Source: a virus. Taken from it: DNA of 40,630 nucleotides. Below, one piece after another: positions 13,734 to 40,421 of the stretch. The stretch lies in the IMG/VR virus record IMGVR_UViG_3300045988_173266; one strand, given 5' to 3'. The position numbers and the translations under genes were made by a program. The notes under the pieces are model-generated. The model was not told the origin of the DNA and ran no database searches. It saw only the letters and a program-made list of their open reading frames with translations. How positions within the stretch are numbered: position 1 is the first letter of the stretch; each line of letters opens with the position of its first letter.

Positions 13734-13912
13734 TGTTCAATAGAAAACGAATAAAACAACTCGAAAGTAGGGTCGACTCGTTGGAAAAGAAGATTGACGA
13801 ACTGCAAAAGCGTACAGTATCTCAAAAGACTATGGAAGAAGACCAACCGCCCACTGTGAGTGTAATTATGGACGAGTGGTTGAACGGTAAGGAGGAAGAC
13901 AATGGATATTAA
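13733..13912 (+). CDS. Small coiled-coil protein
   Basis: GGAGG upstream of ATG 13733. 59 aa. Confidence 0.45.
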   Translation: MFNRKRIKQLESRVDSLEKKIDELQKRTVSQKTMEEDQPPTVSVIMDEWLNGKEEDNGY

Positions 13913-24301: not shown

Positions 24302-24312
24302 GAGAGGGATTA

Positions 24313-24334
24313 AAAGGGAGATACTTCTCCCTTT
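24313..24334 (+). promoter_or_regulatory. 9-bp stem / 4-nt loop hairpin downstream of VR (candidate DGR target-recognition cruciform, or a weak terminator)
   Basis: AAAGGGAGA-TACT-TCTCCCTTT, perfect stem. Confidence 0.5.
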
Positions 24335-24364
24335 GGACTAAAAATATAGGGTAGCGTGTGCCGC

Positions 24365-24475
24365 CCGTGCTGAGTTGCGGTGGGCTTTGGAACTGCGGTG
24401 TCAATGCCGGTTTGTGGAATTGGAATGGTAACAATTCTTCGTCCAACGCCAACGGCAACATCGGCGGTCGCATTT
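24365..24475 (+). repeat. DGR template repeat (TR), non-coding
   Basis: AAY-rich when read in the VR frame (W-N-W-N-G-N-N-S-S-S-N-A-N-G-N-I). Lies between the target gene and the RT. The GC-rich catcggcggtcgc 3' element is shared with VR. Confidence 0.9.
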
Positions 24476-24590
24476 TAATCAAACATTTATTCATTGCACA
24501 CGCAATCCTTGCCCCTTGGCAAAAAATAATCCGAAAAGAGGACGGTTTAGTAGGTTTTTCTCGAAAATCCGTGAGGAGATTAAAAGGTAT

Positions 24591-25682
24591 ATGAAGAGAG
24601 TCGGCTATTTATATGAGAAGATGTGCGATTTAAGTCTTATTCGCTACGCTATAAGAAAAGCGGCGCAAGGTAAAACTTATAAGCATTACATAAGAAAAGT
24701 TTTACAAAATGAAGAGGCTTACGCTTTAAGGATTCAAGAAATGCTTGTAAACGAAAGCGTAAAATTGAGTCCGAATCGTCAAATTACAATATACGACCGC
24801 TCTTGTAGCAAGGAAAGAATTATAACAGTTCCGAAGTTCTTTCCCGACCAAATACTCCATTGGGTAGTAATGCTCGTAATTGAGCCGATAATAACGAAAG
24901 GAATGTATCGGTTTAACTGCGGAAGCGTTCCTACCCGTGGAGGTATGGAAGCCAAAAGATACGTTGAACGCGCGTTAAATGATAAGAAGATAAGATATGT
25001 GGCAAAATTAGATATTTCAAAGTTTTTTAATAGCGTAAAACCGGAGTATTTAATGGCAATGTTCAGGAACAAAATCAAAGACGAGAAAGTATTAAGACTA
25101 ATCAATGCGATTCTTGAAAACGGTGGAGATTGCCTACCTATCGGTTATTATACTTCTCAATGGTTTTCAAACTTCTTTCTCGAAGGATTCGACCACTACG
25201 TTAAGGAGGAATTGAAAATAAAAAAGTACGTTCGTTACGTTGATGATATGGTTCTCCTCGATACGAACAAAAGAAAACTCCACAAGGCTATCGCGAGAAT
25301 GGATGAGTATCTCCATAAGATAGGGTTGAAACTAAAAAGAAACTATCAAGTATGGAAGGTTGGTAGCCGACCGATTGACTTTGTTGGGTTTAGATTTTAT
25401 CAAGACAAAACGGTATTAAGGAAGAAAATCTTTTTTCGACTTTGCCGCCGAGTAAGGAATGTTAGAAAGAGCGGATATATAACCGTTCATCAAGCACAAG
25501 GGATATTGTCCTTGCTCGGCTGGCTATCGCATATAAACGCTTGGAAGTTTTACAAGGAGAAGATATATCCCTACGCTCCGAAGTCAAGACTTAAAAATAT
25601 TGTGAGTAATCACGCAAAAAAATTATTGGAGGCAATAGAAAATGAAAAGATTCAAAAAGGCACTTTGGTTGCAATCTGCTAA
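24591..25682 (+). CDS. DGR reverse transcriptase
   Basis: N-terminus MKRVGYLYEKMCDLSLIRYAIRKAAQGK. IGYYTSQ (I/LGxxxSQ DGR hallmark). Catalytic YVDD in VRYVDDMVLL. Start chosen at ATG 24591 rather than the ORF-track 24516. Confidence 0.9.
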   Translation: MKRVGYLYEKMCDLSLIRYAIRKAAQGKTYKHYIRKVLQNEEAYALRIQEMLVNESVKLSPNRQITIYDRSCSKERIITVPKFFPDQILHWVVMLVIEPIITKGMYRFNCGSVPTRGGMEAKRYVERALNDKKIRYVAKLDISKFFNSVKPEYLMAMFRNKIKDEKVLRLINAILENGGDCLPIGYYTSQWFSNFFLEGFDHYVKEELKIKKYVRYVDDMVLLDTNKRKLHKAIARMDEYLHKIGLKLKRNYQVWKVGSRPIDFVGFRFYQDKTVLRKKIFFRLCRRVRNVRKSGYITVHQAQGILSLLGWLSHINAWKFYKEKIYPYAPKSRLKNIVSNHAKKLLEAIENEKIQKGTLVAIC

Positions 25683-25821: not shown

Positions 25822-25955
25822 CCGTCGAAAATATTTGCGATATTTGCGAAAAGGAAGGTTGCGCCGAGCCTTGTGGAAAGTGGTACGACTGCTTCGAGGG
25901 CAAACCCGTAACCTTCGGATTTGTAGATGAAGGAGACGAAGATGAAAAAATTTAA
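25809..25955 (+). CDS. Unannotated 48-aa Cys-rich ORF
   Basis: Hand translation MVAITVENICDICEKEGCAEPCGKWYDCFEGKPVTFGFVDEGDEDEKI. Five Cys including CDIC. Overlaps neighbours in operon style. Confidence 0.3.
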   Translation: MVAITVENICDICEKEGCAEPCGKWYDCFEGKPVTFGFVDEGDEDEKI

Positions 25956-26421
25956 GATATTTCTTGCGATTCTTATAGGCTTTATTCTCGGCGCGATGAC
26001 GGCGGTCGGAGTGTATTTCTTGACTGTTGGGGAAGTTGCGTGGAAAGAGTATGCCGAAACAAAACTTATTCCTAACGCCGTACTTGCTTTAACCGCTATC
26101 GGCGGACTTGCAACCGCCTCATTGCCGATTATAGCGAAAATTCAATGTGCAGTCGATAATTTCAACAAGGCTACGAAAGATGTAAACGAAACGGCTGAAA
26201 ACGGGCGTAAAACCGAAGGGGCGTTAAACGAGCAAGATAGACGGATTTCGGAAGAATTTGCTACCATAAACGAAAGAATCGCTTCCGTTGAAAAAGATAC
26301 GAAAGCAACCAAAGAAATGTGTCGGATAGGCTTTTGTAATATGGGAGAATTAGTCCAAAGCGGTTATGCTTCCGAAATAGCAAAAGTGGGGGCGGACAAT
26401 GAAGAAAAAACCGAATTATAA
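25942..26421 (+). CDS. Membrane protein (2 TM plus coiled coil); holin or ejection-protein candidate
   Basis: AAGGAGA upstream of ATG 25942. TM segments IFLAILIGFILGAMTAVGVYFL and AVLALTAIGGLATASLPII. Confidence 0.55.
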   Translation: MKKFKIFLAILIGFILGAMTAVGVYFLTVGEVAWKEYAETKLIPNAVLALTAIGGLATASLPIIAKIQCAVDNFNKATKDVNETAENGRKTEGALNEQDRRISEEFATINERIASVEKDTKATKEMCRIGFCNMGELVQSGYASEIAKVGADNEEKTEL

Positions 26422-26836
26422 ATTAAGACTTGTTTTTCTCTACATAGGCAGTTTCTTGGTATCAATCGCTCCGCTCGTTATATGTCTTGCGTTTAATTGG
26501 GGCGATTATACCAAAACTCCCGGAGATACTGTTAAATTGTCGCTCGGCGGAATCATACTTGCAACGCTTGTTTTTATGAAGGTTATAGGCAAATTAAAAA
26601 TGCCGAGGCGAATTGTATCGTTCGGTATCGTTTTTGTTATGGCATACTTATTACAAGCAGTATTGCAAGATATACTCCTGCTTACGGGAATGGCGCTACT
26701 CGGAGAATTTATAGATTATATGTTTTTTCAAAAAGCAATCAAAAAGACCAAAGAAGATATGTTTCTCGGGAAAACTGCCGATGTTACGACCGCGCAAGTA
26801 GAGGAAGTAATAAAAAAATACATAGGTAGGGCTTGA
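26399..26836 (+). CDS. Integral membrane protein (about 4 TM)
   Basis: Hydrophobic segments throughout the 145-aa ORF. Confidence 0.55.
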   Translation: MKKKPNYKLRLVFLYIGSFLVSIAPLVICLAFNWGDYTKTPGDTVKLSLGGIILATLVFMKVIGKLKMPRRIVSFGIVFVMAYLLQAVLQDILLLTGMALLGEFIDYMFFQKAIKKTKEDMFLGKTADVTTAQVEEVIKKYIGRA

Positions 26837-26838
26837 TT

Positions 26839-27729
26839 ATGGGTGAAAAAGTAAGAGATTTTTTCAAACAAAATATCGGCTATTTCATAATTTTCTTCGT
26901 GTGTGCCGTGTATATTTTAACTGCATTTTTGCGGATTGATAAGACGGGTAAGACCATATCGCAGATTATTGCGGACGGCTCTTTGTGCTTTTTTCTCGGC
27001 GTATTCATCAATCGCACTTTTGACTTGCAAGGTATGATGAGCGGCGATAGAGAAGAGGGTGTAAGAGCCACTATTGCCGAACACTCGAAAATCGTAATGA
27101 AAATTTCTCCGCATATAGAAGAACTCGACAAATGGTGTGAAGAGGAAAATGCAAAGAACTACAAAACGCAACGGACGAAAATTCTTGCTCGCGTAGGATT
27201 GAAGTATTCTTCTTGTTTCGATGAAGACGGCGTGGCGATTCCGTTTACGGTGGATAAAGAGAAGATGAAGGATAGGGCGTTGCGAATAACCGAACTTAAA
27301 AAACTTCGCGGTTATCATAAAGCGGTCAACTTAAAACTTACCGCATTGTCGGGAGGAGAACTCACAAGCGAAGGAGGCAAGCAGCAAGACCCGTTTTATT
27401 TTGGAAGGACGAAGGCTCAATATGAGACTCAAAGGGGTTTAGCCGACGTTATTTCAAAGTTTGGCACGGCAATTATATTCGGCGTATACGGAGTGGAACT
27501 TATCAAGGATTTCAGTTATGCAAATCTTATTTGGACGACTTTGCAAGTCGCGATATTTCTTGTAATGGGCGTGATAAAAATGTATCGCTCTTATCTATTC
27601 GTAACAGACGAATATAAAGGAAGAATTTGGAAGAAAATTGACAACCTTCAAAAGTTCGATAATTACATAAATAATCTTCCAAAAGAAAATATAAACACCT
27701 TGGAGGTGGAAAATGAAAAAGACGAATAG
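26839..27729 (+). CDS. Membrane protein (N- and C-terminal TM segments)
   Basis: ATG 26839 (the ORF track begins at TTG 26833). TM segments IGYFIIFFVCAVYILTAFL, LCFFLGVFI and C-terminal IWTTLQVAIFLVMGVI. Confidence 0.55.
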   Translation: MGEKVRDFFKQNIGYFIIFFVCAVYILTAFLRIDKTGKTISQIIADGSLCFFLGVFINRTFDLQGMMSGDREEGVRATIAEHSKIVMKISPHIEELDKWCEEENAKNYKTQRTKILARVGLKYSSCFDEDGVAIPFTVDKEKMKDRALRITELKKLRGYHKAVNLKLTALSGGELTSEGGKQQDPFYFGRTKAQYETQRGLADVISKFGTAIIFGVYGVELIKDFSYANLIWTTLQVAIFLVMGVIKMYRSYLFVTDEYKGRIWKKIDNLQKFDNYINNLPKENINTLEVENEKDE

Positions 27730-29758
27730 GCTTAAATATTGGGAGGACGAACTCAAAAAATACGGAGATGTAGGCGGTGTAGGAGTGGTAAAACCGTCGA
27801 ATCCGCCCTCATTGACGCCCCCCGGAAACTCTAAAAACACGGACAGTAAGAATCCGCTCGATATTTATAACGATTATATAAAAGAATCGAATACGCCTTC
27901 CGCCCCTGACTTGGCGGTAAATCCGAAACTGCCCTCATCTATTCCGACAAATCCTTTTGATAAAGACAAAGGGTTTGCTCCGGTTGATAAAAATCAATTT
28001 TTCGATAGTAGAGTCGTCGGAACTGTGGGAGGCGGATTTTCAGGCGGTAAAAAAGGTGGCGTAACTGACGAGGGGGAGATTATAGGCAATCCGAATCTCG
28101 AAAAGTTTCCAACGATAAAAGACGGCTCAAATCGTGGCGGGGTCGGAGATTATAACCCTAAAAATTCCGAACCTACGTCTCCGACAATACCGACTGCGCC
28201 AAAGACGAATCCGAGTACGATGCCTACGATACCAACTCCGCCGAATCCGTCTACAAGCACTTCGATGACGAATCCGTCGAGCAGTACAACCGAAACTACG
28301 CCGAGTAACAAATTTTCGGCTAAATATCAAGGGACTGACTTTTTGGAATGGTATAGAGCGAATTACGGACAAGAATACGACCCTTCGACGATATTGTCGC
28401 GTAAAAGCGGAATGTCCGACGTTGATTGGGATATCGGTAACAGTCTTTATGATACATATCGAAAAGACCAACAACGCAAAAGCGATTATGAATCGAGAGT
28501 TTCGGCTTTGGATAAGAGCAAAATGCAGTCTCAACAAAATGCAAGTATCACTCTCGATAAATTAAAAAAGTATCTTCCTACGCAAATAAAAGCGCAAGGA
28601 TTAGGCGGACTTGGTGTAAGCGAATCGAGTTTGCTCAATGCATACAATAGTTATTCTTCGGATATGGGCGCGATAGAGAATGATTATCAGGATAGAAAAT
28701 CAAGTCTCGAAGAAGCCTATGCACAAGATAATCTTCAATCTTGGCAGACCTCCAAAGATACCGTATCGGGGATTTTTGACGGATATAAAACTCAATTTGA
28801 GAATAATCAAAAACAAGCATATCAAGACGCTTATAATACGGTGTCTCAAAGTTCAGAAAAAGATGAGAGCGCAATTCTTAAATATATCGAGCAGTTTAGA
28901 AACCGCCTCTCCGATAGTGATTTCCTTACCTTAACGCAACAAGCGAAACAAGTGGCACAAGCAAACAAGCAAGCCTACGATAAAGAACAAGTGGCTAAAA
29001 CCGAGCAATCGCAAAATTCAGCATTTGAAAATGCGCGGACGGCGATTGCAAGCGCGACTTATTATACGCAAGATGATTTTGATAGATTCCTTGAACAATA
29101 TCGCGGGCAAGTAACCGAGTCTCAATTTAACGCTCTTAAATTACAAGCAGAAGGAAAACTTCGCGATAACCTTACGGCTAAAACCGAATCCGATAGACAA
29201 AATGCGTTCGTTGTGGCACAAGCGATAGTCGAATACCTTATCGCCGGGGAAGACTACAAAAGGGCAAAAGCATATCTCGATTCCAACAAAGATACTCTTG
29301 GTGAGCAAGTATATAATTCGTATATGACGAACATTGAGTCTAAATTGAAAAAGGCTGACGAGGGTAAGATAAAAGATTATTTCAAAATCAATAAACTCTC
29401 AAACGGCAATGATATTAAGGCTTTGCGCGATGTTAGTACACGATATAATGTTCAGCCGGCGGACTCGAAAAACCTTGAATTTCAACTCGAATCCGGTGAC
29501 AATATCTATGGGGTAAAACTTGGAGATACGGTTGCGAGTGCCGAACAAGCCGATGTTAAGAAATATATGTACTCCGCATACGGAAGAAAACCGCAAGCGG
29601 GCGACTTGTGTTATTACGCCGGACAAATCGTTATAGTTTGTCAAAATGGCAATTTAAGATACTTAAAGGACGCGCCAAACTTCCTCGGAACGTGGAATTG
29701 GTGGGGCGTTAAGCACTTGGAGGAACTTGTAAACTCGGTAAATGTAGATTATGATTAA
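27713..29758 (+). CDS. Large virion-associated protein with a P/T/S-rich linker and Q-rich coiled coil
   Basis: 681-aa ORF with GGAGG SD. Low-complexity EPTSPTIPTAPKTNPSTMPTIPTPPNPSTSTSMTNPSSSTTETTPS. Confidence 0.5.
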   Translation: MKKTNRLKYWEDELKKYGDVGGVGVVKPSNPPSLTPPGNSKNTDSKNPLDIYNDYIKESNTPSAPDLAVNPKLPSSIPTNPFDKDKGFAPVDKNQFFDSRVVGTVGGGFSGGKKGGVTDEGEIIGNPNLEKFPTIKDGSNRGGVGDYNPKNSEPTSPTIPTAPKTNPSTMPTIPTPPNPSTSTSMTNPSSSTTETTPSNKFSAKYQGTDFLEWYRANYGQEYDPSTILSRKSGMSDVDWDIGNSLYDTYRKDQQRKSDYESRVSALDKSKMQSQQNASITLDKLKKYLPTQIKAQGLGGLGVSESSLLNAYNSYSSDMGAIENDYQDRKSSLEEAYAQDNLQSWQTSKDTVSGIFDGYKTQFENNQKQAYQDAYNTVSQSSEKDESAILKYIEQFRNRLSDSDFLTLTQQAKQVAQANKQAYDKEQVAKTEQSQNSAFENARTAIASATYYTQDDFDRFLEQYRGQVTESQFNALKLQAEGKLRDNLTAKTESDRQNAFVVAQAIVEYLIAGEDYKRAKAYLDSNKDTLGEQVYNSYMTNIESKLKKADEGKIKDYFKINKLSNGNDIKALRDVSTRYNVQPADSKNLEFQLESGDNIYGVKLGDTVASAEQADVKKYMYSAYGRKPQAGDLCYYAGQIVIVCQNGNLRYLKDAPNFLGTWNWWGVKHLEELVNSVNVDYD

Positions 29759-29770
29759 AGGAGCGTAAAT

Positions 29771-32700
29771 ATGGCATATACTCTAACTCCTGCCGAAAGA
29801 CGAGCAAGAGCGCAATCTCTCCGTGAGAATCGTGAAAACCGCAAACTTTATTATGATTATTTAGAAAAAAAAGCGGCGTTAGAGCGTGAACAACAAATTC
29901 AAAGAAATGCTGAACTGCAAGCGGAACAAGAAAAGGCGAATCAGTCTTTTCTTGTTCGAGGTTTGTCTACTGTTGGAGATATCGTTGCAAATGTTCTTAC
30001 AGGGGCGGTAAAAGGTCTTGAAGGTATCGTAGACCTCGGAATCGGTTTGGTTGGCGGTATAGGCGGAATTTTTGACGGGGATTTTCAAGAAAGAGCAAAA
30101 AACGCTATCGCTTACGATTGGACGGGCGAAACTTTCGGAAACGCTCTTCAAGAGGCGTTAAAATATTCTTATACCACTAACGGCGGTATAATTGAAAACG
30201 TAGCAAGCGGAATCGGACAAATGCTTCCGTCCGTTGTTGTTTCGATTGCAACGGCGGGAGCGGGCGCGCCCGCTGCGGTAGCACAAGCCGCCTCGCTTGC
30301 CACTTTGGGCGTTAGTGCTGCCGGTACTTCTACCGAAGAAGCGTTTCAAGAAGGTGCGGATTATTGGGCGGGTCTCGGTTACGGCACGGCTTCGGGTCTT
30401 GTAGAAGTCGGAACGGAAAAGATGTTCGGTGGGGCGACGAAGGCTCTTACCGGTGCGGGTATTCTCGACGGCGTAACAAGGTCGGTTGCCGATACGGGCA
30501 TAAAGAGAATTGCAAAGAACGCACTTGAAGAGGGTTTTGAAGAAGTCGTTTCCGAACTCGCAAATCCTGCGTTGAAATCTATCTATAAAGGCTCGGAGGC
30601 TTTCAATGATTACGGCAATTTAGATTATTGGAAAGGAGTCGGAGAGGCTGGTCTCGTCGGCTCTTTAACCGCGCTTGCGTATAGCGGTACGGTCGGTTAT
30701 GGATTATCCAAAGTCGGTGTTGGGTACGTTGGGAAAGAAGCCGATATTGCGGATTCTTTATCGGAAATTGCTACACTCAAAGAGAAAGCAAATAATCTTC
30801 AAGCAAACGGCGAACTTATCGGCGTGAACGAACAAAAGATAGCCGATACCACCAAAAAGAATTATCAAAACATCGAGAAGGTTCTTCAAGGCGTTTCGGA
30901 GGATAAACGCTCGAAACTTATTGAAAAATTCAATCTCGATAAAGCGTTCAATACTGACGGCTCTATGAGCGGTCAGTTGTCGTCGTGGTTTAATTCCGTC
31001 GGAGAATCCGCCGAAGTGTCGGACGGCTCTCAAAATGAACTTGCAAGTCTTAAAAAAGACTCGTATTCGTTTAATCTCCGAGGACAAGAACAAACTATCG
31101 CTTCCGACCTTGACGCCATATCGGAAAATCTTGCTAATAAGTATATGGCTGCCAAACAAGAGAAAGGGAATAATATTACCATTGAGCAAGCGAGAGAGCA
31201 AGTCGGTAAAGTAAAGGTATTCGACGGCGAGATGTCCGATAACGCAAAGCAAAGCCGTAATAAATTCAATAAGGCTCTCAATTATCTCAACAAGGAATCG
31301 GGGGCAAATCTCTCATTTGTTGTAACCGAAAGCAACGACGCTTTCAACGGATTAGTCATCGACGATAGGACGATGTATATCGGAGAAGACCAATTTGAAA
31401 AAGGAACGTGGGCGGAAACTTTGGTTCACGAATATACCCACTTATCCGAGGGGTCGGAAGAGTACGCCAAGTTGGTAGACTTCTTGTCGTCCGATAACGT
31501 TTTGGTGGACGACGGCAACGGCGGAAAGGTCGAACTTTGGAAGAAAGGGCAAGAATCTGTATTTGACAAAAATTACGGTTTCGATAGAGAGAAAATCCAA
31601 GAAATCCACGACAAAATCGCCAACGCACAAGAATTGACCGCAGATGAACAGAAATATTTTAAGGACTTTATGTCGGAAGTTGGAGCGCACGAAACGCAAT
31701 ATCTTCTCGGTAATGAAGAATTTATCGACCGAATCGTAGCGAGAGACTCGTCTTTTGCGAAAAAGTTTTTACAAAAGATTGAGAATTTGAGAAAAGCCTT
31801 TGAAAGAGTCGGAGACAAAGAAGCGAGAAAAGCCTACAAACAAATTCACGAAGCCGAGAAACTTTATTTGAAAGCGGCGGCAAAAGCGGGAGATATGAAA
31901 CTTGTAAAATTCATTCTTTCTCGTAACCCTGACCTTGAAAAAGAAATTGACGTTTCCGCCGAAATCAAGTATAATAAGAAGGCAAAATATCTCAACATAA
32001 GCAAACAAGAATATGCGATTATCAGTTCTCGCATAATGGAAGACAATTCAAGCGTTATGGCGAAAGGTGGAGAGATTGCAAGATACAACACCGCAAGAAG
32101 CGCGAATTACTTCTATGTATATGAAAACTTTTCCGAAGGGAACTTTGGTGTATTAAAGCAAATCGCTTTAACCGATGATAAAATAAAATACATAAACGCT
32201 ATCGAAGCGAAAATAGGAGAATCAAATGGAGAATCAGTTATCCGAAGCACAAGCGAACTTAATAGAGTGCTTGAAGTTCTTAAAAATAAGTCAAGAAACG
32301 ATAGTCGGAATAATGCTTATGATTCCGAAAGACGAGCAGATAGCAGAAATGGCGAATTATCTATCGGACAATCCGAAAGCAAGCGAATCGGAAATACTGA
32401 AAAAGACGACGGAAATAAGAGAGTAAAATATTCTCTTAAAATCGGAAACGAAAACTTAACCGTAGACGGCGAAGAAAGAAAAAATCTTGTTGCACTTCAT
32501 AATCTCTCCGAGGAAAAACTTATGAAAGTTTTGGAACTCGGAGGGTTTCCTATGCCTTCGATTGCTATAACTCGTGCAGATTTAGGACACGAACAATTCG
32601 GAGATATTACGGTTATATTCGGTAGGGAGACGATAGACCCGAAAGCCGATTCAAGAAATAAGGTTTATTCGAGAGACGGATATACTCCAACCGTACCGAA

Positions 32701-35700
32701 AATAGACTACAAAGTCAATGAAAAAGTATTATCGAAAATATCGAAGAAATACTACGAACTCTCCAAGAAATTTGGTTATGATACGACTCGCCCGTTGTAT
32801 AAGTATGTAAACGATATGGAGAGGGTGTTAGAGGATAATGCGGGAGAGTTCGCAACAATCTCGCAAGTTTACGATGACACCGATATTATGCAATTATATC
32901 TCCTCGATTCGGGGAAGGAGAAAATTCAACCCGTCTATAAGGAAATAACGGAATCCTTACCAAAAGAACGGGTTGAATATCTAAACTCTTTAATCAATCA
33001 TTTAGGGAAAGAAGCCGTTTTGGAGATTACGCCGAAAGACGGGGAATCTCTATTTACACATAGGCACAATTACGCTGAAAAATATCGAGATAAAATTGCA
33101 GAGTTTTTGGTTGACGGGAAAATTTATAAGAATACGAGCGAAGTTTTTGAAGATTTTAAGGATATCGACCTTTTAAGGCTTGTAATCTCCGCGCGGAATT
33201 TTATCAATAATGGTGCAACGACTACAAAAAGCGAATTTGATTCTTCGGCTACGAATAAGGCTATTCGTGAAGCGACTCCGCAAAAAGAATATCACGCGTG
33301 GGTAGATTCTTTATTTGAGGGGATTCAAGAAAAAACGGGTATAAGAAACGATAAGGATATTTTTACTCCGTCCGGGAATAGGCGTAGTTTTGAAGCAACG
33401 CACGACAGTTATACTCTTGATAATATTATTAAAGCGATGAAACGCGCGCCGATAAAAGGCGACGGAGGTTTTGTTGGGTTAAACGTTAATGCTTTGGCTG
33501 CCAAATTGTCAAGAGAGTTCAAAAGCGTTGCGGAAATTCGTAAAAACGCCGATTCGCTTAAAACATTTAACCAAGAGATTCAAAACAATTTTATAGATAC
33601 TGCAAGGGAAATGATAAGTGAAATCGAACGCCTTTTCGTCCCGCAAGCGGACAATAGTATACAAAGTTGGACAATGCTCGACGGAGCGTCTACGCTTATC
33701 GGAGAAATTGCTGATAACGGCTTTACCACCGAAAAGCAAATAGCCGACTATATGGCGCGAGAATATAAGAATACTTCTTACAGATACTCGAAAGAAGTAG
33801 GCGATAAAATCCTTGCGTTATTCGATTATGTTCGTCAAATGACGGATACGGATTATTTTGAATCAAAGCCTCGTAGGGCAGTAGAGTTTAAGGAAATCCG
33901 CGATGTGCTTATTCCGGAAAATGCGAGCGAAAAACTTATCAAGGCTCTTGATGAACAAGGAATTGAACATATTACTTATACAGAAAAAAATACTCGTTCG
34001 GATATTATCAATAAACTCGATAATATTAGATTCTCTCTAAAAGAGGACTCCGACGGCAGAAAACTTTCGGAAGGGCAAAAGGAATACTTCAAAAATAGCA
34101 AGGTTATTGATGAAGACGGCAACTTAATGGTTGTATATCACGGTACGCCGAAGCCGAATTTTTCAGTTTTCAAACTTGGAGACGGTGCTTTGGGTAATGG
34201 TATATACTTTGCCGAGAGCAAAGAATACTCAAAAGGGTTTTCTTTTGGTTCAAATCCGTATGAAGTATATTTGAATATTACAAATCCATACGAAGTAAAC
34301 TACCCTATCAGCGACAGTATAACAGAGAAACTTATTGCAAAAGGTTATGACGGAATACATCATAAGCAGAACGGCTTTTGGGTAGCCTTTTCCCCGGAAC
34401 AAATAAAACTTGTAGATAATCTCACTCCTACCAAGAATGAAGATATTCGTTTTGACTTAAAGGAAGACGATTTATCTAAAAAGTATCGTTACGAATTATC
34501 GGACGGGCAAATCAAAAAACTCATTGCGGATAAAACGATGAGAAAGGTATACTCGAAAGTTGAGTCCGAAAAGATAATCAATACAATTCTTTCCGAATCT
34601 CTCGGTGTGGGCGAGAAATACGGTTCGCTTACGGGTAGGGCAAAATCGGAAGTTATCGAAATGCTTTGGCGCGGACTTAATACTGCCGAACCGGGCAAGC
34701 AGATGAAAGTTGCTCTCGATGTGGCGGAATACATAATACAAAATTCCGTTTTGGAAAACCTTTACGAAGATTCCGAAAACTCGATTTACATTGATACGAT
34801 AAATGCCTTAAAGCCTTATCTTCATTCGCTTGACCTTTCCGCATTGAAAGGCGAGATAAAATATAAGTTCGACAATGATAATAGTGCATATTTGTTGTGG
34901 GGCAAAAGAAAGGGCGAAAGAGGCTTAACCGCCGACCAAGTTAAAATGGAACTCGGCGAGCGTGGATTCTTTATCGACTCGGATAATGAAGCGGATATAT
35001 TCTTCAGTATGGATAGCGCGTATCGTGAAGCGGTTTCCGCAATGAAGAAAAAGAGCAAAGAATTGCTTTCGTCGGCTCTTTCCGGAGAAGAGAGGGAAAC
35101 TCTTAAAAACAAAATTGCGAGAGAAGTTCTGCTTGCTTTCGATAAAAACGGCAAGCCCTCGAAATTCTCGAAGATACTCGAACAGTACCATAAAGAAGCG
35201 TTGACGTGGAAAAGGCTTTATTACGACGAGCGCACAAGGAACACCGTCATCAATCGTCTTCTCGATAAAGTTCAGAAAATCAAAGAATGGAAGTCGGGAA
35301 TATTCCTTAATGCTTCACAATATAATGCGGATATTTTCAAAAAATCTATCGATAAATTGGCGAATATCAAATTCCGTGGCGACCTGAATCAGAGCGGCAC
35401 GAGAGATATTATTGCGGGGCTTAAAGAGTGGTATTCGCAAAAAAATTCGATTCTTAATGACGTGTACGATTCGGATATTGCGGAAATGCTCGATGATATC
35501 GCGACGGGCGAGGGGAAACTTACCACCCAGGAACTCCGAAATCTCTCGAACGTGGTAGACCATTTTAAACATTTCGTAGAAACTTATAACAAGGTCTATC
35601 GTAACGGAAAGTATGTAGAGGCTCAACCCATTGCGGAAAAATATGTTTCCGTGATGAAACGGAATAAGTCGGTGACAGTCGGTTGGCTTAAAAAATATTT

Positions 35701-38389
35701 TGAAAAGTATCTCACGACGTTCGGCGACCCGATGACGGTTGCGCGATATTTCGATAAATACGAAAACGGATTTTATTCGGAGATGTTGGCGACCTTGCGT
35801 GAAAGCGCGACTAACGCTCAAATCGACGAGATGAATATCCGCGAGCCTATCGAGGACTTCATTAAAAAGAATAAGAAATACTTTAAAGAAGCCGAGAAAA
35901 AGACCGTAAAATACCAAGGGCAAGATATTCCGTTATTGCAAGCGATATATATTTATATGGCGATGAACGACGCGGACACTATTCCGTCGTTTGCAAAGTC
36001 GGGTTTTGTCTTTAACGACGGGGATTCGGATATAAGAATTGACGGTTTCGCAAAAAATGAAGACATTGAAGTTGCGGAAATGCAGGCAATGGCAAAGGAA
36101 ATACAATCTTCGCTCGAAAGTCAGTTTTCTGCGGCGGATAAAGAATATATCGGAATCGCAAGAAAAATCTTTAACGAGGTTTGCAGGCAGAAATATATTG
36201 ACACGAGCAACAACCTTAAAGGTTATGCCAATGTAAAAGAGGGCGATTATGTTCCTATCCGTAGGGCGAACATCGCTAAAAATATTGATACAAGCAATGT
36301 TGAATACGAGGTCAAAAGCGCGAGCAACCCTTCTTTCACAAAGGACAGAGTAAAAGGCGCAAAAGGCGAACTCCGTATAGACGGAATAGATACGGTGGTA
36401 GACAGGCATATCCGCGCGATTGCTTTATATGCCAATCTTGCTCCCGCGCTTGAAGAGTATAACAGACTATTCAACCTGAATACGGAAGAAGACAATAATA
36501 AACCCGTCAGCGTGGCTACCGAAAGCCGTAACGTGTGGGCGCAAGGCGACGAATATTTCAAGAAACTCATAAACGATATTAAGGGAATCCCCGCCGCAAA
36601 AGGCGACGGAATCAAGGCTATGGCGTTTATAAGAAGCGGCTATGCAAAGTTCCAACTCGGCGCAAATCCGAAAGTGTGGGTAACGCAGTTATCGTCGTTC
36701 TTCGCTTCGGGAAGTATTTTGGATTACACTTCTATCGTCAAAGGTATCGGAATAAAAACAAACGACGTTGACACCTACTGCGAACTTGCAAAATTGCGTA
36801 ATAACGATAATACCGCCGCTATGGCGCAAGGCGTTCTCGAAAAGGTAGATAAGGTCGGCAACGTGCTTATGAAGCCTATCGGAACGGTCGATAGATTCGT
36901 TATTGAAAAACTTTTCGGCGCGTGTCAGGTACAGGTTCAAAAGGACTACGGCTTGAAAATCGGTACGGAGGAGAATAAGGTCAAAGCGGGCGAACTGCTG
37001 AAACGCGTAATTCTCGAAACGCAACAGAATTCTATGGCTACGGAAAGGTCTTCGGCTATGCGTTCGGGTAGCGAGTTTATGAGAACGATAACGATGTTTT
37101 CCGCCGACTCAATGAAGGTCATAGGAAGAGTTGTAGATTCTATCGGAGAATTAAGCGCGTTAAAATCAAAGAAAAAAATTCTTACCGACGCAAACGAAAT
37201 CGCGAACATAAATAAACAGATAGAGCAGGCGACAAAGAAAGTTGCGAAATCCACGACTTCGCTTATAACTTCGGCTGTGTTTATGGCTCTCGTGGCGCAG
37301 TTGTTCAGAACACTTTACAACAAAGACGATGAAGACGATAATGTGGTCGCAAATATGACGACCGACGCTATCGGAAACCTTTTCGGCGGCTTACCGATTT
37401 TCAAGGATATTTATTCTCGCCTTGTAGAAGGATATGATATTGACGGTTACGCATATTCTGCGATAAACGATATGCTTGATAGCGCGGAAAACATTTTCAA
37501 GATGTGCGGGAACATTGTTTCCGGCGAGGCAACTTCGCAAGAGGTTGCAAAAAATATCAAGAATATGGTTTATGCGGCGGGGCAAATTTTCGGGCTGCCG
37601 GCACGAAATGTTTATAATGTCGCCTACGGATTAACGAAAAGAGTAAGTCTGTCTACCGCATACAAAATCGACACGGCTTTCTACAATAAGAAGTATACTT
37701 CCGATTTGAACAAGGCTATCGCGAGTGGCGATGACGATATGATTGCAACAATCGTCGAACTTATGACGAATGAACGGGTCGGGAGCATAGGCGATTCCGC
37801 CGTAAGTCAGGAACTCAATTCTCTTGTTACGAAAGGTTATGACGTAATCCCGCGAAGCGTCGGAAAAGAGATAACCTATAACGGCGAAGAAATAAGTTTA
37901 ACAAGCGGTCAGAGAAAACAGTTCAAGGAAGTATATTCTGTGGCGAATAAGGCGGTTGCAAGCCTTGTAAAATTATCTCAATACAAATCCGCGACCGACG
38001 ATGTAAAAGCAAAAGCGATTAAGTATATTTACAACGTATATTACAATCTTGCTCTCCAAGACTTGCTTGGAGAAGACCTTGAAACGAAAACAGTCTTATT
38101 CGCGGAAGCAATCGACGTAGAGAAACTCGCTATCATTGTCGCGACGGCTAATTCCTTAACCGCCGACCTCGATAAGAAAGGAAATGCGATAAGCGGAACT
38201 CGTAAGAGGAAAATTCAAGCCTATGTAAATTCGCTTAAACTTTCCGCCGCTCAAAAGTATATGGTTATGGGCTATCTCGGATTCAGTAATCTGAATGGCG
38301 AATCGCAAGTCAAAGCGTACATCAACCGCCTCAATCTCACGAAGTCAGAGAAAGAGAAACTTCTCAAATATAGCGGGTACGGGAAATGA
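29771..38389 (+). CDS. Giant (2872 aa) polyvalent-type virion protein with Gly/Ala-rich hydrophobic N-terminal region, zincin-like HExxH domain and ART-like domain
   Basis: Uninterrupted frame. HEYTH at nt 31427..31441 (aa 553-557). VVYHGTPKPNF...GNGIYFAESKEY...YEVYLNITNPYEV around nt 34100..34420. Hydrophobic AGAGAPAAVAQAASLATLGVSAAG and a C-terminal TM. Confidence 0.8.
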   Translation: MAYTLTPAERRARAQSLRENRENRKLYYDYLEKKAALEREQQIQRNAELQAEQEKANQSFLVRGLSTVGDIVANVLTGAVKGLEGIVDLGIGLVGGIGGIFDGDFQERAKNAIAYDWTGETFGNALQEALKYSYTTNGGIIENVASGIGQMLPSVVVSIATAGAGAPAAVAQAASLATLGVSAAGTSTEEAFQEGADYWAGLGYGTASGLVEVGTEKMFGGATKALTGAGILDGVTRSVADTGIKRIAKNALEEGFEEVVSELANPALKSIYKGSEAFNDYGNLDYWKGVGEAGLVGSLTALAYSGTVGYGLSKVGVGYVGKEADIADSLSEIATLKEKANNLQANGELIGVNEQKIADTTKKNYQNIEKVLQGVSEDKRSKLIEKFNLDKAFNTDGSMSGQLSSWFNSVGESAEVSDGSQNELASLKKDSYSFNLRGQEQTIASDLDAISENLANKYMAAKQEKGNNITIEQAREQVGKVKVFDGEMSDNAKQSRNKFNKALNYLNKESGANLSFVVTESNDAFNGLVIDDRTMYIGEDQFEKGTWAETLVHEYTHLSEGSEEYAKLVDFLSSDNVLVDDGNGGKVELWKKGQESVFDKNYGFDREKIQEIHDKIANAQELTADEQKYFKDFMSEVGAHETQYLLGNEEFIDRIVARDSSFAKKFLQKIENLRKAFERVGDKEARKAYKQIHEAEKLYLKAAAKAGDMKLVKFILSRNPDLEKEIDVSAEIKYNKKAKYLNISKQEYAIISSRIMEDNSSVMAKGGEIARYNTARSANYFYVYENFSEGNFGVLKQIALTDDKIKYINAIEAKIGESNGESVIRSTSELNRVLEVLKNKSRNDSRNNAYDSERRADSRNGELSIGQSESKRIGNTEKDDGNKRVKYSLKIGNENLTVDGEERKNLVALHNLSEEKLMKVLELGGFPMPSIAITRADLGHEQFGDITVIFGRETIDPKADSRNKVYSRDGYTPTVPKIDYKVNEKVLSKISKKYYELSKKFGYDTTRPLYKYVNDMERVLEDNAGEFATISQVYDDTDIMQLYLLDSGKEKIQPVYKEITESLPKERVEYLNSLINHLGKEAVLEITPKDGESLFTHRHNYAEKYRDKIAEFLVDGKIYKNTSEVFEDFKDIDLLRLVISARNFINNGATTTKSEFDSSATNKAIREATPQKEYHAWVDSLFEGIQEKTGIRNDKDIFTPSGNRRSFEATHDSYTLDNIIKAMKRAPIKGDGGFVGLNVNALAAKLSREFKSVAEIRKNADSLKTFNQEIQNNFIDTAREMISEIERLFVPQADNSIQSWTMLDGASTLIGEIADNGFTTEKQIADYMAREYKNTSYRYSKEVGDKILALFDYVRQMTDTDYFESKPRRAVEFKEIRDVLIPENASEKLIKALDEQGIEHITYTEKNTRSDIINKLDNIRFSLKEDSDGRKLSEGQKEYFKNSKVIDEDGNLMVVYHGTPKPNFSVFKLGDGALGNGIYFAESKEYSKGFSFGSNPYEVYLNITNPYEVNYPISDSITEKLIAKGYDGIHHKQNGFWVAFSPEQIKLVDNLTPTKNEDIRFDLKEDDLSKKYRYELSDGQIKKLIADKTMRKVYSKVESEKIINTILSESLGVGEKYGSLTGRAKSEVIEMLWRGLNTAEPGKQMKVALDVAEYIIQNSVLENLYEDSENSIYIDTINALKPYLHSLDLSALKGEIKYKFDNDNSAYLLWGKRKGERGLTADQVKMELGERGFFIDSDNEADIFFSMDSAYREAVSAMKKKSKELLSSALSGEERETLKNKIAREVLLAFDKNGKPSKFSKILEQYHKEALTWKRLYYDERTRNTVINRLLDKVQKIKEWKSGIFLNASQYNADIFKKSIDKLANIKFRGDLNQSGTRDIIAGLKEWYSQKNSILNDVYDSDIAEMLDDIATGEGKLTTQELRNLSNVVDHFKHFVETYNKVYRNGKYVEAQPIAEKYVSVMKRNKSVTVGWLKKYFEKYLTTFGDPMTVARYFDKYENGFYSEMLATLRESATNAQIDEMNIREPIEDFIKKNKKYFKEAEKKTVKYQGQDIPLLQAIYIYMAMNDADTIPSFAKSGFVFNDGDSDIRIDGFAKNEDIEVAEMQAMAKEIQSSLESQFSAADKEYIGIARKIFNEVCRQKYIDTSNNLKGYANVKEGDYVPIRRANIAKNIDTSNVEYEVKSASNPSFTKDRVKGAKGELRIDGIDTVVDRHIRAIALYANLAPALEEYNRLFNLNTEEDNNKPVSVATESRNVWAQGDEYFKKLINDIKGIPAAKGDGIKAMAFIRSGYAKFQLGANPKVWVTQLSSFFASGSILDYTSIVKGIGIKTNDVDTYCELAKLRNNDNTAAMAQGVLEKVDKVGNVLMKPIGTVDRFVIEKLFGACQVQVQKDYGLKIGTEENKVKAGELLKRVILETQQNSMATERSSAMRSGSEFMRTITMFSADSMKVIGRVVDSIGELSALKSKKKILTDANEIANINKQIEQATKKVAKSTTSLITSAVFMALVAQLFRTLYNKDDEDDNVVANMTTDAIGNLFGGLPIFKDIYSRLVEGYDIDGYAYSAINDMLDSAENIFKMCGNIVSGEATSQEVAKNIKNMVYAAGQIFGLPARNVYNVAYGLTKRVSLSTAYKIDTAFYNKKYTSDLNKAIASGDDDMIATIVELMTNERVGSIGDSAVSQELNSLVTKGYDVIPRSVGKEITYNGEEISLTSGQRKQFKEVYSVANKAVASLVKLSQYKSATDDVKAKAIKYIYNVYYNLALQDLLGEDLETKTVLFAEAIDVEKLAIIVATANSLTADLDKKGNAISGTRKRKIQAYVNSLKLSAAQKYMVMGYLGFSNLNGESQVKAYINRLNLTKSEKEKLLKYSGYGK
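32226..32426 (+). CDS. Candidate overprinted 66-aa ORF in an alternative frame inside the giant gene
   Basis: AGGAGA at 32215-20, 5 nt before ATG 32226. The translation looks like a folded helical protein, while the main frame is S/R/N/D low complexity over the same nucleotides. Confidence 0.3.
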   Translation: MENQLSEAQANLIECLKFLKISQETIVGIMLMIPKDEQIAEMANYLSDNPKASESEILKKTTEIRE

Positions 38390-38688
38390 AAAGGTTGTGG
38401 TTAAAATGTAAAGCCTTTATAAGGTGGATTTTGAAGCAACTTAAAGACAAGATGAATATCCTTATTTTCATTATCGTGTTTTTGGTGTTATCGTCGGAAG
38501 TGTGGATTCCGTATCTTTTGGCGATAATAACCGAGAATAAGTGGTGGTGGGGAATAGGTTCGGCTTGTTGGGCGTTTTGGCTCGCGCCGTTTACACCGTT
38601 TCTTCCGCTATGTCTTGCAATAACTTTCGGCGTTCGGAAAATCGTAGACAAAATTCGAGATAAACATAACAAAAAAGACGGGGAGTGA
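38386..38688 (+). CDS. Small membrane protein (about 3 TM); holin-like candidate
   Basis: ATGA overlap with the giant gene. ILIFIIVFLVLSSEVWIPYLLAII, WWWGIGSACWAFWLAPF, FLPLCLAITFGV. Confidence 0.55.
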   Translation: MKRLWLKCKAFIRWILKQLKDKMNILIFIIVFLVLSSEVWIPYLLAIITENKWWWGIGSACWAFWLAPFTPFLPLCLAITFGVRKIVDKIRDKHNKKDGE

Positions 38689-38707: not shown

Positions 38708-39259
38708 TTATGCGAACTTCCCTTTGCGTACAAAAACAGTTCCTGTTATTGACTTGATACCGATATTTTCTGGGTTTGAATCGGGAAAATAAATTTGAAA
38801 ACTATCGCTCCTATACTCAATGGTAAATGAGCAATGAGAATAACCTTGATAATCAAGATTTGAAGTTGGAGAGTCTGACATATATGCTTGCCACAATGTT
38901 TCAGGTTGTACTGAAAACGTTATGGTTACATTATTGAAGTAGCAATCTTGCTTGCGAGACGTCTCAATATGCCCTATGCAGTACATTTTGTAGTATGTAA
39001 AGTTGTCGTTTGTCTTGTCCGATAAATAAGCATTACAATCGGTATAATACATATTGATTGCTATATAATCAGCGTAGTTTTCTTTTGTAATGGGGATAGA
39101 TTCATATTCTATATTATCATCTTGGCTGCTGCACGCGGTTAAGAATATACACGAGAAAATGAAAATTAAAAATGCTATACAAGTGATAAGTCTTTTTATT
39201 GTGGATAACTTAAAATTTTCGGGGGGGGGGGTAGACTTTTTAATGGAATTAACAAACAT
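38708..39259 (-). CDS. Lipoprotein (moron; superinfection-exclusion candidate)
   Basis: Signal peptide with lipobox: KRLITCIAFLIFIFSCIFLTAC then SSQDD. AGGAGG 7 nt upstream. The only minus-strand gene in the window. Confidence 0.7.
   Translation of the reverse strand: MFVNSIKKSTPPPENFKLSTIKRLITCIAFLIFIFSCIFLTACSSQDDNIEYESIPITKENYADYIAINMYYTDCNAYLSDKTNDNFTYYKMYCIGHIETSRKQDCYFNNVTITFSVQPETLWQAYMSDSPTSNLDYQGYSHCSFTIEYRSDSFQIYFPDSNPENIGIKSITGTVFVRKGKFA
39221..39231. repeat. G11 (C11 on the coding strand) homopolymer in codons 11-14 of the lipoprotein gene
   Basis: ttttcGGGGGGGGGGGtagac read directly; encodes T-P-P-P. Confidence 0.95.
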
Positions 39260-39395: not shown

Positions 39396-40421
39396 ATGAA
39401 AGGTATGAGATTTACGGCAAAAGAAAAAGAACGCGCTCTCAAAATGTGGCTAAATGAAAGCACCGACATAACGTTAGTTGCACATCGAATGAAGTGTACC
39501 GAGAGAACTCTTTGGCATTGGAAATCTCTCTATGACGGAACGCTTGCGAGTCTTGAAAATAAGTCATCGAGACCGCATACGCCTAATCCGAAATCTCACA
39601 CTAAAAAAGAAATTGAAAATATTAAAAAAATTTTTAATGAACACCCGGATATAAGTTACGCGGAAGCGTTCGGAAAGTTGCGAACGGATTGTGCATATTC
39701 AAGAACTTACTTCGGATTTTGGAGATTCGTCGTCAAAAGCGGAATCCGTCCGCATAAAGATGTTGTTGAAAAATATATTGAGAAACCTTATAATACGCCC
39801 GAAATGTTCGCAATCAAAATGCAAATGGACGTGAAGGTTGTTCCGAAAGAATGTAAGATAGGCGAATATAAAGACGAGAAGGACTTTCAGTATACAATAA
39901 TAGACGAGGCGACAAGAGAAAGATTTATCTATCCTTATAAAGAGCAAAGCACATACTCCACCGCTGACTTCTTAAAGAGAGCGTTTGTATATTTCGGTTA
40001 TCTTCCTGCAATAGTCCAAACGGATAACGGAACGGAATTTACTCCGCCAAAAAATGCGAAAGAAACGACGATTAACGCCGTAGATAGATTTTTGATTAAA
40101 TACGGAATTAAACATAAACTTATAAAACCGCGTACGCCGAGACACAATGGAAAGGTAGAGCGTTCTCATAGAACCGACCAAGAATGTTTTTATGACCATT
40201 TGCAATATTCTACTTACGAAGAACTGAAAGAGAAAATGGCAGAATGGCTTAATAGATATAACAATCGTCCGCACTCGTCTTTGCGGAATAGGGCAGGGAA
40301 AAGAGTTTGGTTGACTCCGCTGCAAAAGAGGGCGGAACTAATGGAAGATTATCTTAAAAGCGGTTTTAAGGACGAAAACGATAAGGAGATTAAAATCCGA
40401 TTCCTCAAAAAATCTGCTTAA
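39396..40421 (+). CDS. DDE (rve, retroviral-integrase-fold) transposase/integrase with N-terminal HTH; IS481/IS3-like
   Basis: HTH-like N-terminus. Catalytic D in MQMDVK, D in VQTDNGTEFT, E in NGKVERSHR. YNNRPHSSL tail. Confidence 0.8.
   Translation: MKGMRFTAKEKERALKMWLNESTDITLVAHRMKCTERTLWHWKSLYDGTLASLENKSSRPHTPNPKSHTKKEIENIKKIFNEHPDISYAEAFGKLRTDCAYSRTYFGFWRFVVKSGIRPHKDVVEKYIEKPYNTPEMFAIKMQMDVKVVPKECKIGEYKDEKDFQYTIIDEATRERFIYPYKEQSTYSTADFLKRAFVYFGYLPAIVQTDNGTEFTPPKNAKETTINAVDRFLIKYGIKHKLIKPRTPRHNGKVERSHRTDQECFYDHLQYSTYEELKEKMAEWLNRYNNRPHSSLRNRAGKRVWLTPLQKRAELMEDYLKSGFKDENDKEIKIRFLKKSA

Follow-up and report, generated by a model that had tools for sequence, protein, structure and literature searches.

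A giant polyvalent-type protein with an exchangeable enzymatic cassette in podovirus-like phages of gut Clostridia

RESULTS

The giant gene

The virus record IMGVR_UViG_3300045988_173266 from IMG/VR, analyzed here over its whole length of 40,630 nucleotides (nt; hereafter, the window), carries a single gene for a protein of 2,872 amino acids (aa), in which two conserved scaffolds enclose a cassette of exchangeable enzymatic modules (Table 1). Listing and translation of the open reading frames (ORFs) showed that this frame is uninterrupted and takes up 8,619 of the 40,630 nt, or 21.2%, as claimed in a first-pass annotation made from the sequence alone. The gene is preceded by an AGGAG ribosome-binding site (29759–29763), 12 nt past the stop of the upstream gene; the next gene begins at 38386 and overlaps its stop codon. 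The giant gene is translationally coupled within the late structural operon.

Table 1 Positions of the giant gene, its modules, and other features of the window
Feature	Position (nt)	Strand	Remarks
DNA methyltransferase	6255–7427	+	390 aa; early region; phrog_116, E 2e-45
TerL	11919–13733		Small terminase-like gene also present
Portal	13902–15875		
Major head protein	16885–17748		
Diversity-generating retroelement	23201–25682		Variable repeat 24174–24284; template repeat 24365–24475; reverse transcriptase 24516/24591–25682
Three overlapping membrane-protein genes	25927–27729	+	164 aa (2 transmembrane segments), 145 aa (4), 298 aa (3)
Co-conserved upstream genes m145, m298, and "partner"	26399–29758	+	4 and 3 predicted transmembrane segments in m145 and m298; partner of 681 aa
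Giant polyvalent protein gene	29771–38389	+	ATG start; 2,872 aa; uninterrupted ORF
N-terminal scaffold	29771–31963	+	aa 1–731; charged helical leader, Gly/Ala-rich amphipathic/hydrophobic helices (aa ~60–330), helical spacer, zincin
Gluzincin-like metallopeptidase domain (predicted)	31238–31750	+	aa ~490–660; HEYTH 31427–31441; third-ligand candidate E636 31676–31678
Boundary motif 1, EIKYNKK	31964–31981	+	aa 732–737; end of N-terminal scaffold
Module X	31982–32422	+	aa 738–884; small domain, then Arg/Asn/Ser/Asp-rich linker
Boundary motif 2, RVKYSLK	32423–32440	+	aa 885–890
PBECR5 domain	32429–33094	+	aa 887–1108; Pfam PF18814; predicted metal-independent endoRNase, BECR fold
Extension travelling with PBECR5	33095–34024	+	aa 1109–1418
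Boundary motif 3, NIRFSLK	34025–34042	+	aa 1419–1424
ART-PolyVal ADP-ribosyltransferase domain	34109–34420	+	aa 1447–1550; Pfam PF18760 (Tox-ART-HYD2 clade)
Boundary motif 4, DIRFDLK	34445–34462	+	aa 1559–1564
C-terminal scaffold	34463–38386	+	aa 1565–2872; almost all alpha-helical
Two-transmembrane protein	38386–38688	+	100 aa; holin-like in size and topology
Sole sizeable minus-strand gene of the late region	38708–39259	−	183 aa; signal peptide; lipobox-like LTAC|S
Rve-type DDE recombinase	39396–40421	+	341 aa; last gene of the genome

Conserved scaffolds and exchangeable modules

A total of 541 homologues of the giant protein were collected, and the best 120, with lengths of 2,577–3,276 aa, were used for comparison of architectures. 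All 120 aligned over aa 1–700 and aa 1550–2872, while the middle part varied. A Gly/Ala-rich hydrophobic N-terminus had been proposed in the first-pass annotation, and Gly and Ala indeed make up 24%–28% of the N-terminal 400 aa, with hydrophobic stretches at aa 75–103 and 144–174. This region contains many nearly invariant Gly and acidic residues. Among 16 N-terminal homologues, no Pfam family, including the tape-measure families, was found to recur in the N-terminal scaffold.

The C-terminal scaffold includes the expected hydrophobic segments, located at aa 2491–2516 (a helix encoded at nt 37241–37318) and aa 2774–2793. Its best-conserved core spans aa ~2130–2470 (nt 36158–37180) and harbors the invariant polar residues Y2160, P2162, H2213, Y2220, N2299, K2301, Q2306, S2309, R2343, D2374, and C2385. 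An exhaustive HMMER search with aa 1601–2800 retrieved 1,407 clusters, formed at 50% identity, under a cut-off of E ≤ 1e-3, and 507 under E ≤ 1e-30; nearly all of the matched proteins were 2,000–3,900 aa long and were matched at their C-termini. The AlphaFold2 model of this scaffold (predicted local distance difference test [pLDDT] 77, predicted template modeling score [pTM] 0.64) is almost entirely helical, and a Foldseek comparison with PDB revealed no analogue (best E 0.076, template modeling [TM] score 0.05). On the other hand, 73 predicted viral structures in BFVD matched it at E ≤ 1e-3, with TM scores of 0.4–0.6 over more than 1,000 columns and only 12%–17% sequence identity. Many of them bear names that refer to cargo only, such as "PolyVal ADP-ribosyltransferase," "Nuclease," "MuF C-terminal domain," "Large polyvalent protein-associated domain," and "N-acetyltransferase." Therefore, the C-terminal scaffold appears to serve phage polyvalent proteins as a widespread carrier module that has so far lacked annotation.

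The modules between the scaffolds are exchanged between closely related phages, since relatives with 90%–99% identical flanks carry extra or different middle modules. One of them (P0009) has an additional module of ~230 residues after aa 1427, while another (P0020) has DUF3990 and three copies of the ADP-ribosyltransferase (ART) domain in place of the PBECR5 module. The set of cargo domains found in 13 distant giant proteins comprised ART-PolyVal (seven proteins), PBECR3 (four), PBECR5 (three), LPD3, LPD23, MuF_C, PARP, and DUF3990.

Domain-by-domain profile searches placed ART-PolyVal and PBECR5 above their thresholds and assigned no region to a Pfam peptidase family or to a tape-measure or other purely structural family. 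A Pfam search of six pieces of the giant protein at E ≤ 10 yielded only noise outside these two domains, the NCBIfam search of the protein returned nothing, and phmmer found no hits to it among PDB sequences. In a tblastn search against cultured phages, only relatives of the cargo modules were detected; the C-terminal scaffold matched only unannotated fecal contigs. About 2,000 residues had been left unnamed in the first-pass annotation or described as helical linkers. Most of this part is indeed outside the named families, but it consists of two strongly conserved scaffolds together with the PBECR5 module, which had been overlooked.

PBECR5 and ADP-ribosyltransferase modules

The PBECR5 domain was identified with an E value of 1e-58 and a score of 199.5 bits, against a gathering threshold of 25. 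Comparison of 63 distinct copies of this domain revealed an invariant H910 and conservation of S930, T972, P973, and T974. H910 and the Ser/Thr residues S930, T972, and T974 are candidates for the active site described for PBECR RNases, consisting of His plus Thr/Ser. In PHROGs, the sole match of the giant protein was phrog_22978 of unknown function, which covers aa 833–1428, and therefore PBECR5 and the 300-residue extension following it seem to move as one unit. Acinetobacter phage Ab9 and Bacteroides phage BF1-TP2 matched aa 904–1421 in the tblastn search. Of the 120 best homologues, 93 contain the preceding module X, and no family was found for it by Pfam, including searches with split segments at E ≤ 10.

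The presence of an ART-PolyVal domain, initially suggested from a sequence signature, was supported by a Pfam score of 48.7 bits versus a gathering score of 31.2. The strings VVYHGT (aa 1454, nt 34130), GNGIYFAE (aa 1475), YEVYLNITNPYEV (aa 1497), and KGYDGIHH (aa 1524), on which this suggestion was based, all occur between aa 1454 and 1531. The catalytic triad had been taken for H-Y-E, while the actual residues are H1457, Y1479, and D1527. They correspond to H-Y-D, the active site reported for the ART-PolyVal family, with His in strand 1, Tyr in strand 2, and Asp in strand 5 (Iyer 2017, PMC5512222). The H-Y-D triad is conserved in 270 copies (173 distinct) from 170 of 297 family proteins, with one to four copies in each. 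Searches of PDB sequences with phmmer yielded no hits for either the ART or the PBECR5 module, and no experimental study of PBECR5 or ART-PolyVal was found in the literature library searched.

A zincin-like domain in the N-terminal scaffold

The HEYTH sequence at aa 553–557, previously noted as a zincin-like HExxH site, belongs to a conserved domain. Alignment of 21 homologous segments, with identities down to 20%, revealed H553, E554, H557, and E636 as the sole invariant columns, which are the predicted ligand set of a gluzincin. In the AlphaFold2 model of aa 1–760, pLDDT is ~90 over aa 440–650. The modeled elements comprise a helix at aa 490–510, strands at aa 515–519, 527–530, and 534–538, the HExxH helix at aa 547–558, and a helix at aa 624–646 carrying E636; as modeled, their order is that of the zincin core. 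The best Foldseek match among 350,542 PDB chains was selecase (4qhf), a minimal metallopeptidase, or minigluzincin (probability 0.95, TMt 0.46, 94 columns, 20% identity); its E value was only 0.44 because the query is long.

No Pfam peptidase family was found in the giant protein at E ≤ 10, including searches with split segments. Among its relatives, Aspzincin_M35 was matched by 12 members out of 21 and 7 out of 16, and DUF6782, SprT-like, and M78 by single members each, all of these matches being sub-threshold. In a PDB profile search, peptidyl-Lys metalloendopeptidase aligned at the HExxH helix. Since these peptidase matches are all below thresholds, we refer to the domain as zincin-like rather than assigning it to a named family. 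The conserved ligands and the model indicate that it is probably an active zincin-like peptidase outside any curated family. A minority of relatives have a degenerate motif, e.g., EExxH or YExxH.

A hexapeptide motif at the module boundaries

Four copies of the hexapeptide [IV][KR][FY][SDN][LK]K, found at aa 732, 885, 1419, and 1559, coincide exactly with the joints between successive parts of the protein (N-terminal scaffold, module X, PBECR5 module, ART domain, and C-terminal scaffold). In 252 family proteins, the motif, with the logo D-[IV]-[RK]-[YF]-S-L-K-[DE], was found 1.89 times per protein versus 0.16 in shuffled sequences, and 62% of ART copies have it within 60 residues upstream. The additional module of P0009 begins directly after motif 3 and is bracketed by two motif copies. 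The copies differ in codons, so the motif is conserved at the protein level; for the same reason, it was ruled out as a DNA recombination joint. In the AlphaFold2 model, pLDDT falls below 50 from aa 728, and the first copy lies in this low-confidence stretch, as expected of a linker. We did not find the motif described in the survey of polyvalent proteins, where processing by zincins was proposed only in general terms (Iyer 2017, PMC5512222). The boundary motif may be a cleavage site.

Gene order in related loci

In agreement with the first-pass annotation, the giant gene follows tail and membrane-protein genes: the three overlapping genes upstream of the partner gene encode proteins with two, four, and three transmembrane segments, for which no family match was obtained. 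The 681-aa partner has a Pro/Thr/Ser-rich N-terminus and a helical C-terminus. The genes m145 and m298 immediately precede the giant gene in 22 or more related loci, with 30%–70% identity, and the partner was detected in about half of these loci. The m145 and m298 proteins may be ejection or assembly partners.

Comparison of gene order, performed by tblastn of the window proteins against 63 related loci, revealed two arrangements. In at least 22 loci, the tail genes are followed by m145, m298, sometimes the partner, and then the giant gene at the end of the late operon. The giant gene of at least 17 other loci is located upstream of the head and tail genes, a place classically occupied by minor head proteins such as MuF. 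Where gene calls were available for this second arrangement (L006 and L007), the order was TerL, portal, a partner of 490–587 aa, the giant gene, a scaffold-like gene, and the capsid gene; the 661-aa protein of these loci is the portal homologue, and the neighboring 490–587-aa protein is weakly similar to the 681-aa partner. Both arrangements place the giant gene inside the predicted virion-morphogenesis operon.

The post-tail type is represented by L004, L008–L018, L031, and L042–L044, and the portal-proximal type by L006, L007, L020–L023, L027, L030, and L034–L038. In most portal-proximal loci, the N-terminal scaffold was undetected by tblastn, and therefore exchange may extend to this end as well.

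The 100-aa protein encoded downstream is retained after the giant gene in several relatives and has no family match. An endolysin was not identified in the window.

The phage lineage and its hosts

The window represents essentially the whole phage genome because identical copies of the giant protein are encoded on contigs of 40,629 and 40,664 bp. The replication and early block includes genes for a single-stranded DNA-binding protein (SSB), a NinB-like protein, a DnaC-like loader, and a DNA methyltransferase. Other products are proteins of 211 and 844 aa, a 610-aa fiber protein containing leucine-rich repeats, and a 366-aa tail protein. The only cultured relatives of the portal and the 844-aa protein are the Bacillus megaterium podophages Page, Pony, and Palmer, with genomes of ~40 kb: the portal is 30% identical to the counterpart from this group (E ~1e-62), and the identity of the 844-aa protein to its "virion structural protein" is 24%. 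Genes for the tail tube, sheath, and tape-measure chaperone were not seen in the window. Taken together, this kinship and the lack of such genes indicate that the phage is podovirus-like. No match was obtained when 22.6 kb of the window was compared at the DNA level with 50,697 phage records.

A scan of species-representative genomes located the C-terminal scaffold at 58 loci, which with few exceptions belong to metagenome-assembled genomes (MAGs) of gut Clostridia from humans and other mammals. The hosts were assigned to Christensenellaceae, Oscillospiraceae, Acutalibacteraceae, Lachnospiraceae, and "Eubacteriales." The host genes spoIIAA-spoIIAB-sigF border the prophage in a related MAG; therefore, the lineage is temperate, and its host is spore-forming.

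DISCUSSION

Possible role of the giant protein

The giant protein combines PBECR5, ART-PolyVal, and zincin-like domains, is encoded among the TerL, portal, and head genes of a phage, and has mosaic orthologues. Judging from these features, it belongs to the already described class of polyvalent proteins (Iyer et al. 2017). Membership in this class had been proposed in the first-pass annotation from the ART and zincin motifs; PBECR5 is a second enzyme of the polyvalent repertoire in the same polypeptide.

We consider it rather probable that this is a multi-effector polyvalent protein as defined by Iyer et al. (2017), made late in infection, packaged in the capsid, and co-ejected with the DNA. 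The surroundings of the gene in over 40 related loci are consistent with an ejected internal virion protein, as suggested earlier. Two carriers, one composed of the N-terminal Gly/Ala-rich helices and the gluzincin and the other of the 1,300-residue helical C-terminal scaffold, would flank the exchangeable cargo, which in this phage would be the PBECR5 endoRNase and the H-Y-D ADP-ribosyltransferase, each bracketed by the boundary motif. The scaffolds would bring the giant protein into the podovirus-type head or portal channel, possibly with the help of the partner and the small membrane proteins, and at infection it would be expelled into the cell together with the DNA. The resident zincin could then cut at the boundary motifs and release the free RNase and ART, which would attack host RNA and proteins, so that the defense is disabled or the cell is taken over. 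Packaging and injection are known for N4 virion RNA polymerase (vRNAP), P1 DarB and DdrB, and T4 Alt (Iyer 2017, PMC5512222; PMC9503650).

Several observations weigh against this interpretation. No cultured phage with the scaffold was found by tblastn, and it is the gene context from which packaging is deduced. The scaffolds have no similarity detectable by PDB sequence search or Foldseek to any solved ejection or internal core protein. A protein of 2,872 aa would have to unfold or be cleaved in order to pass the tail channel of a podovirus, which is plausible by analogy with N4 vRNAP, which does so. The zincin falls below every Pfam peptidase threshold, and its Foldseek E value is modest, as noted above. 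Finally, proteins with an intact HExxH…E zincin have 2.41 motifs each versus 0.75–0.95 in others, but this difference is confounded by relatedness.

A more specific version, which we propose only tentatively, is a self-processing polyprotein whose gluzincin cuts the motif junctions after ejection and frees interchangeable effectors. The C-terminal scaffold would then represent a hitherto unrecognized, very widespread "injection carrier" fold, with similar predicted structures in phages from gut and other environmental metagenomes, that loads arbitrary cargo into podovirus heads and threads it through the tail.

Alternatively, the protein could be a structural part of the ejection machine, forming with the membrane proteins and the partner a conduit for DNA across the Gram-positive envelope, with the enzymes as optional passengers. 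We regard this as rather unlikely. It is the scaffolds and not the enzymes that are conserved and apparently indispensable; the multi-pass m145 and m298 proteins accompany the giant gene in at least 22 loci, and the hydrophobic helices at aa 75–174 and 2491–2516 would suit such a role. The gp14-gp15-gp16 layout of phage T7, in which gp16 likewise carries an enzyme domain, provides a parallel. However, solved ejection proteins show no similarity to the giant protein in sequence or fold, and retention of cargo catalytic residues across hundreds of copies, along with the fast turnover of the cassette, points to selection acting on the enzymes. Moreover, a conduit function overlaps with that of a packaged and ejected effector more than it excludes it.

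It is still less probable that the protein is not packaged and acts in the producing cell or lysogen, either as a late host-shutoff factor or as a prophage toxin involved in exclusion or interbacterial competition. HYD2-type ARTs also occur in polymorphic toxin systems and were suggested as possible toxins during lysogeny (PMC9503650), and in prophage L004 the giant gene is the last phage gene before the host spoIIA genes, a frequent position of morons. But its coupling within the late operon, with no promoter-like site above 9/12 directly upstream, argues against this role, and Pfam searches found no secretion signal or toxin-delivery domain. An immunity-like neighbor was not identified, the sole adjacent small gene being that for the 100-aa two-transmembrane protein, and in at least 17 loci the giant gene is upstream of the head genes and not at the prophage end.

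There is very little chance that the protein is a tape measure or another tail-length structural protein with enzyme inserts: the Gly/Ala-rich hydrophobic N-terminus and the long helical body resemble tape measures, but a single weak Pre_tape_measure match (E 0.18) with no recurrence in the 16 N-terminal homologues led us to reject this identity, and the missing tube, sheath, and chaperone genes, the kinship of the portal and the 844-aa protein to Bacillus podophages, the position of the giant gene after the portal in many loci, and the shifts in length, from 2,577 to 3,240 aa, that follow cassette changes in close relatives, unlike in a ruler, all argue against it. Equally hard to credit is a virion RNA polymerase for early genes, of the N4 vRNAP or crAss-like gp66 type, hidden in the C-terminal scaffold: the size, the virion-operon context, and the association with a zincin and an ART mirror N4-like vRNAP polyvalent proteins, and the core has invariant polar residues, but the almost all-helical model contains no double-psi beta-barrel or palm-like sheet, Foldseek found no polymerase or other solved structure, and no RNA polymerase family was detected in Pfam or NCBIfam. 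A lysozyme-like domain in this scaffold likewise had no fold support from AlphaFold2 and Foldseek.

Comparison with known systems

The closest described counterparts of the giant protein are phage polyvalent proteins; in Roseovarius Plymouth podovirus 1, for instance, an N4-like vRNAP carries metallopeptidase (MPTase) and ART domains (Iyer 2017, PMC5512222). The shared features are a single giant polypeptide, a podovirus virion-gene context, the combination of a zincin-like domain, H-Y-D ART, and predicted PBECR RNase, extensive mosaicism between orthologues, and predicted delivery with DNA. Unlike the N4-like vRNAP polyvalent proteins, the giant protein has no RNA polymerase module, and unlike the described polyvalent proteins, it has carrier scaffolds absent from Pfam, PHROGs, and PDB, and its zincin is missed by the polyvalent MPTase model of Pfam.

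Like T7 gp16 and related internal core or ejection proteins of podoviruses, such as the phiKMV-like ones that bear lysozyme domains, it is large, helical, encoded in a late operon beside smaller hydrophobic proteins, and equipped with enzymatic domains. However, no similarity to this group was detected in the PDB sequence search (0 hits) or by Foldseek (best E as given above), the cargo would be aimed at the cytoplasm and not at peptidoglycan, and the hosts are Clostridia of the Gram-positive type. The functional logic would be that of P1 DarB and DdrB and T4 Alt, enzymes preloaded into the head and acting before phage gene expression. DdrB contains a zincin thought to process DdrB itself (Iyer 2017, PMC5512222). 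T4 Alt, however, is a single-function ART of the R-S-E type, DarB is a methyltransferase/helicase, and neither has the scaffolds or a modular cassette.

A conserved head-associated carrier with variable toxin-like cargo is also characteristic of MuF-fused polymorphic toxins in temperate phages, where an N-terminal MuF head domain is joined to a variable toxin at the C-terminus; one of the common locus types places the giant gene after the portal, and some relatives carry MuF_C. At the same time, MuF (PF04233) was not detected, the cargo is internal rather than C-terminal, and the carrier is about ten times larger. In Bacillus phage Page, the same slot, after the tail genes and before the holins, is occupied by the gene for gp20 (Page_20; NC_022764.1, 19786–24825), a hypothetical protein of 1,679 aa. 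Homology of gp20 to either scaffold was undetected by BLASTP, hhalign, and profile hidden Markov models, and a local alignment of NYMPMFRH with DYVPIRRA was not significant, leaving gp20 as a positional analogue only. In different podophages, this genomic position seems to be filled by giant proteins that are not homologous to one another.

To our knowledge, packaging of polyvalent proteins has been documented only for a few classical cases. Such proteins were predicted in 2017 to be a main means by which phages and conjugative elements pre-empt host defense (PMC5512222). The class itself is not surprising to specialists; new here are the two scaffolds, the family's size and host range, the exchange of cassettes between near-identical phages, and the boundary motif. 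Thousands of ~40-kb prophages of gut Clostridia with the same carrier and differing cargo amount to a natural experiment, making this lineage well suited for testing the polyvalent-protein model, which is still unproven: it makes testable which cargo counters which defense, whether the zincin releases modules at the motif, and what the C-terminal scaffold does. In addition, with the scaffold and the motif, many giant genes of gut viromes now called "hypothetical" could be annotated better.

Other genes of the phage

Upstream of the membrane-protein genes, the genome contains a diversity-generating retroelement. Its variable repeat of 111 nt is at the 3′ end of the gene for the 366-aa tail protein (phrog_5302), and the template repeat, 84% identical to it, sits between this gene and the reverse transcriptase gene (RVT_1; phrog_1423, E 1e-90). 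Mismatches between the repeats occur at template adenines over most of their length, those at the 5′ edge deviating from this pattern. The variable repeat is identical in three assemblies of this phage, and the pair of tail target and reverse transcriptase genes was also found in related loci.

The rve-type recombinase is nearest to IS481-family transposases, with a score of 171 bits, which is under the NCBIfam cut-off of 224. It is retained at the genome end in L009, L010, L014, and L025, while L008 has a serine recombinase there. This enzyme may be the phage integrase rather than part of an inserted insertion sequence. The 183-aa minus-strand protein, for which no family match was found, may be a lipoprotein expressed by the prophage, e.g., for superinfection exclusion. 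The early-region DNA methyltransferase is a second, conventional anti-restriction measure of the same genome.

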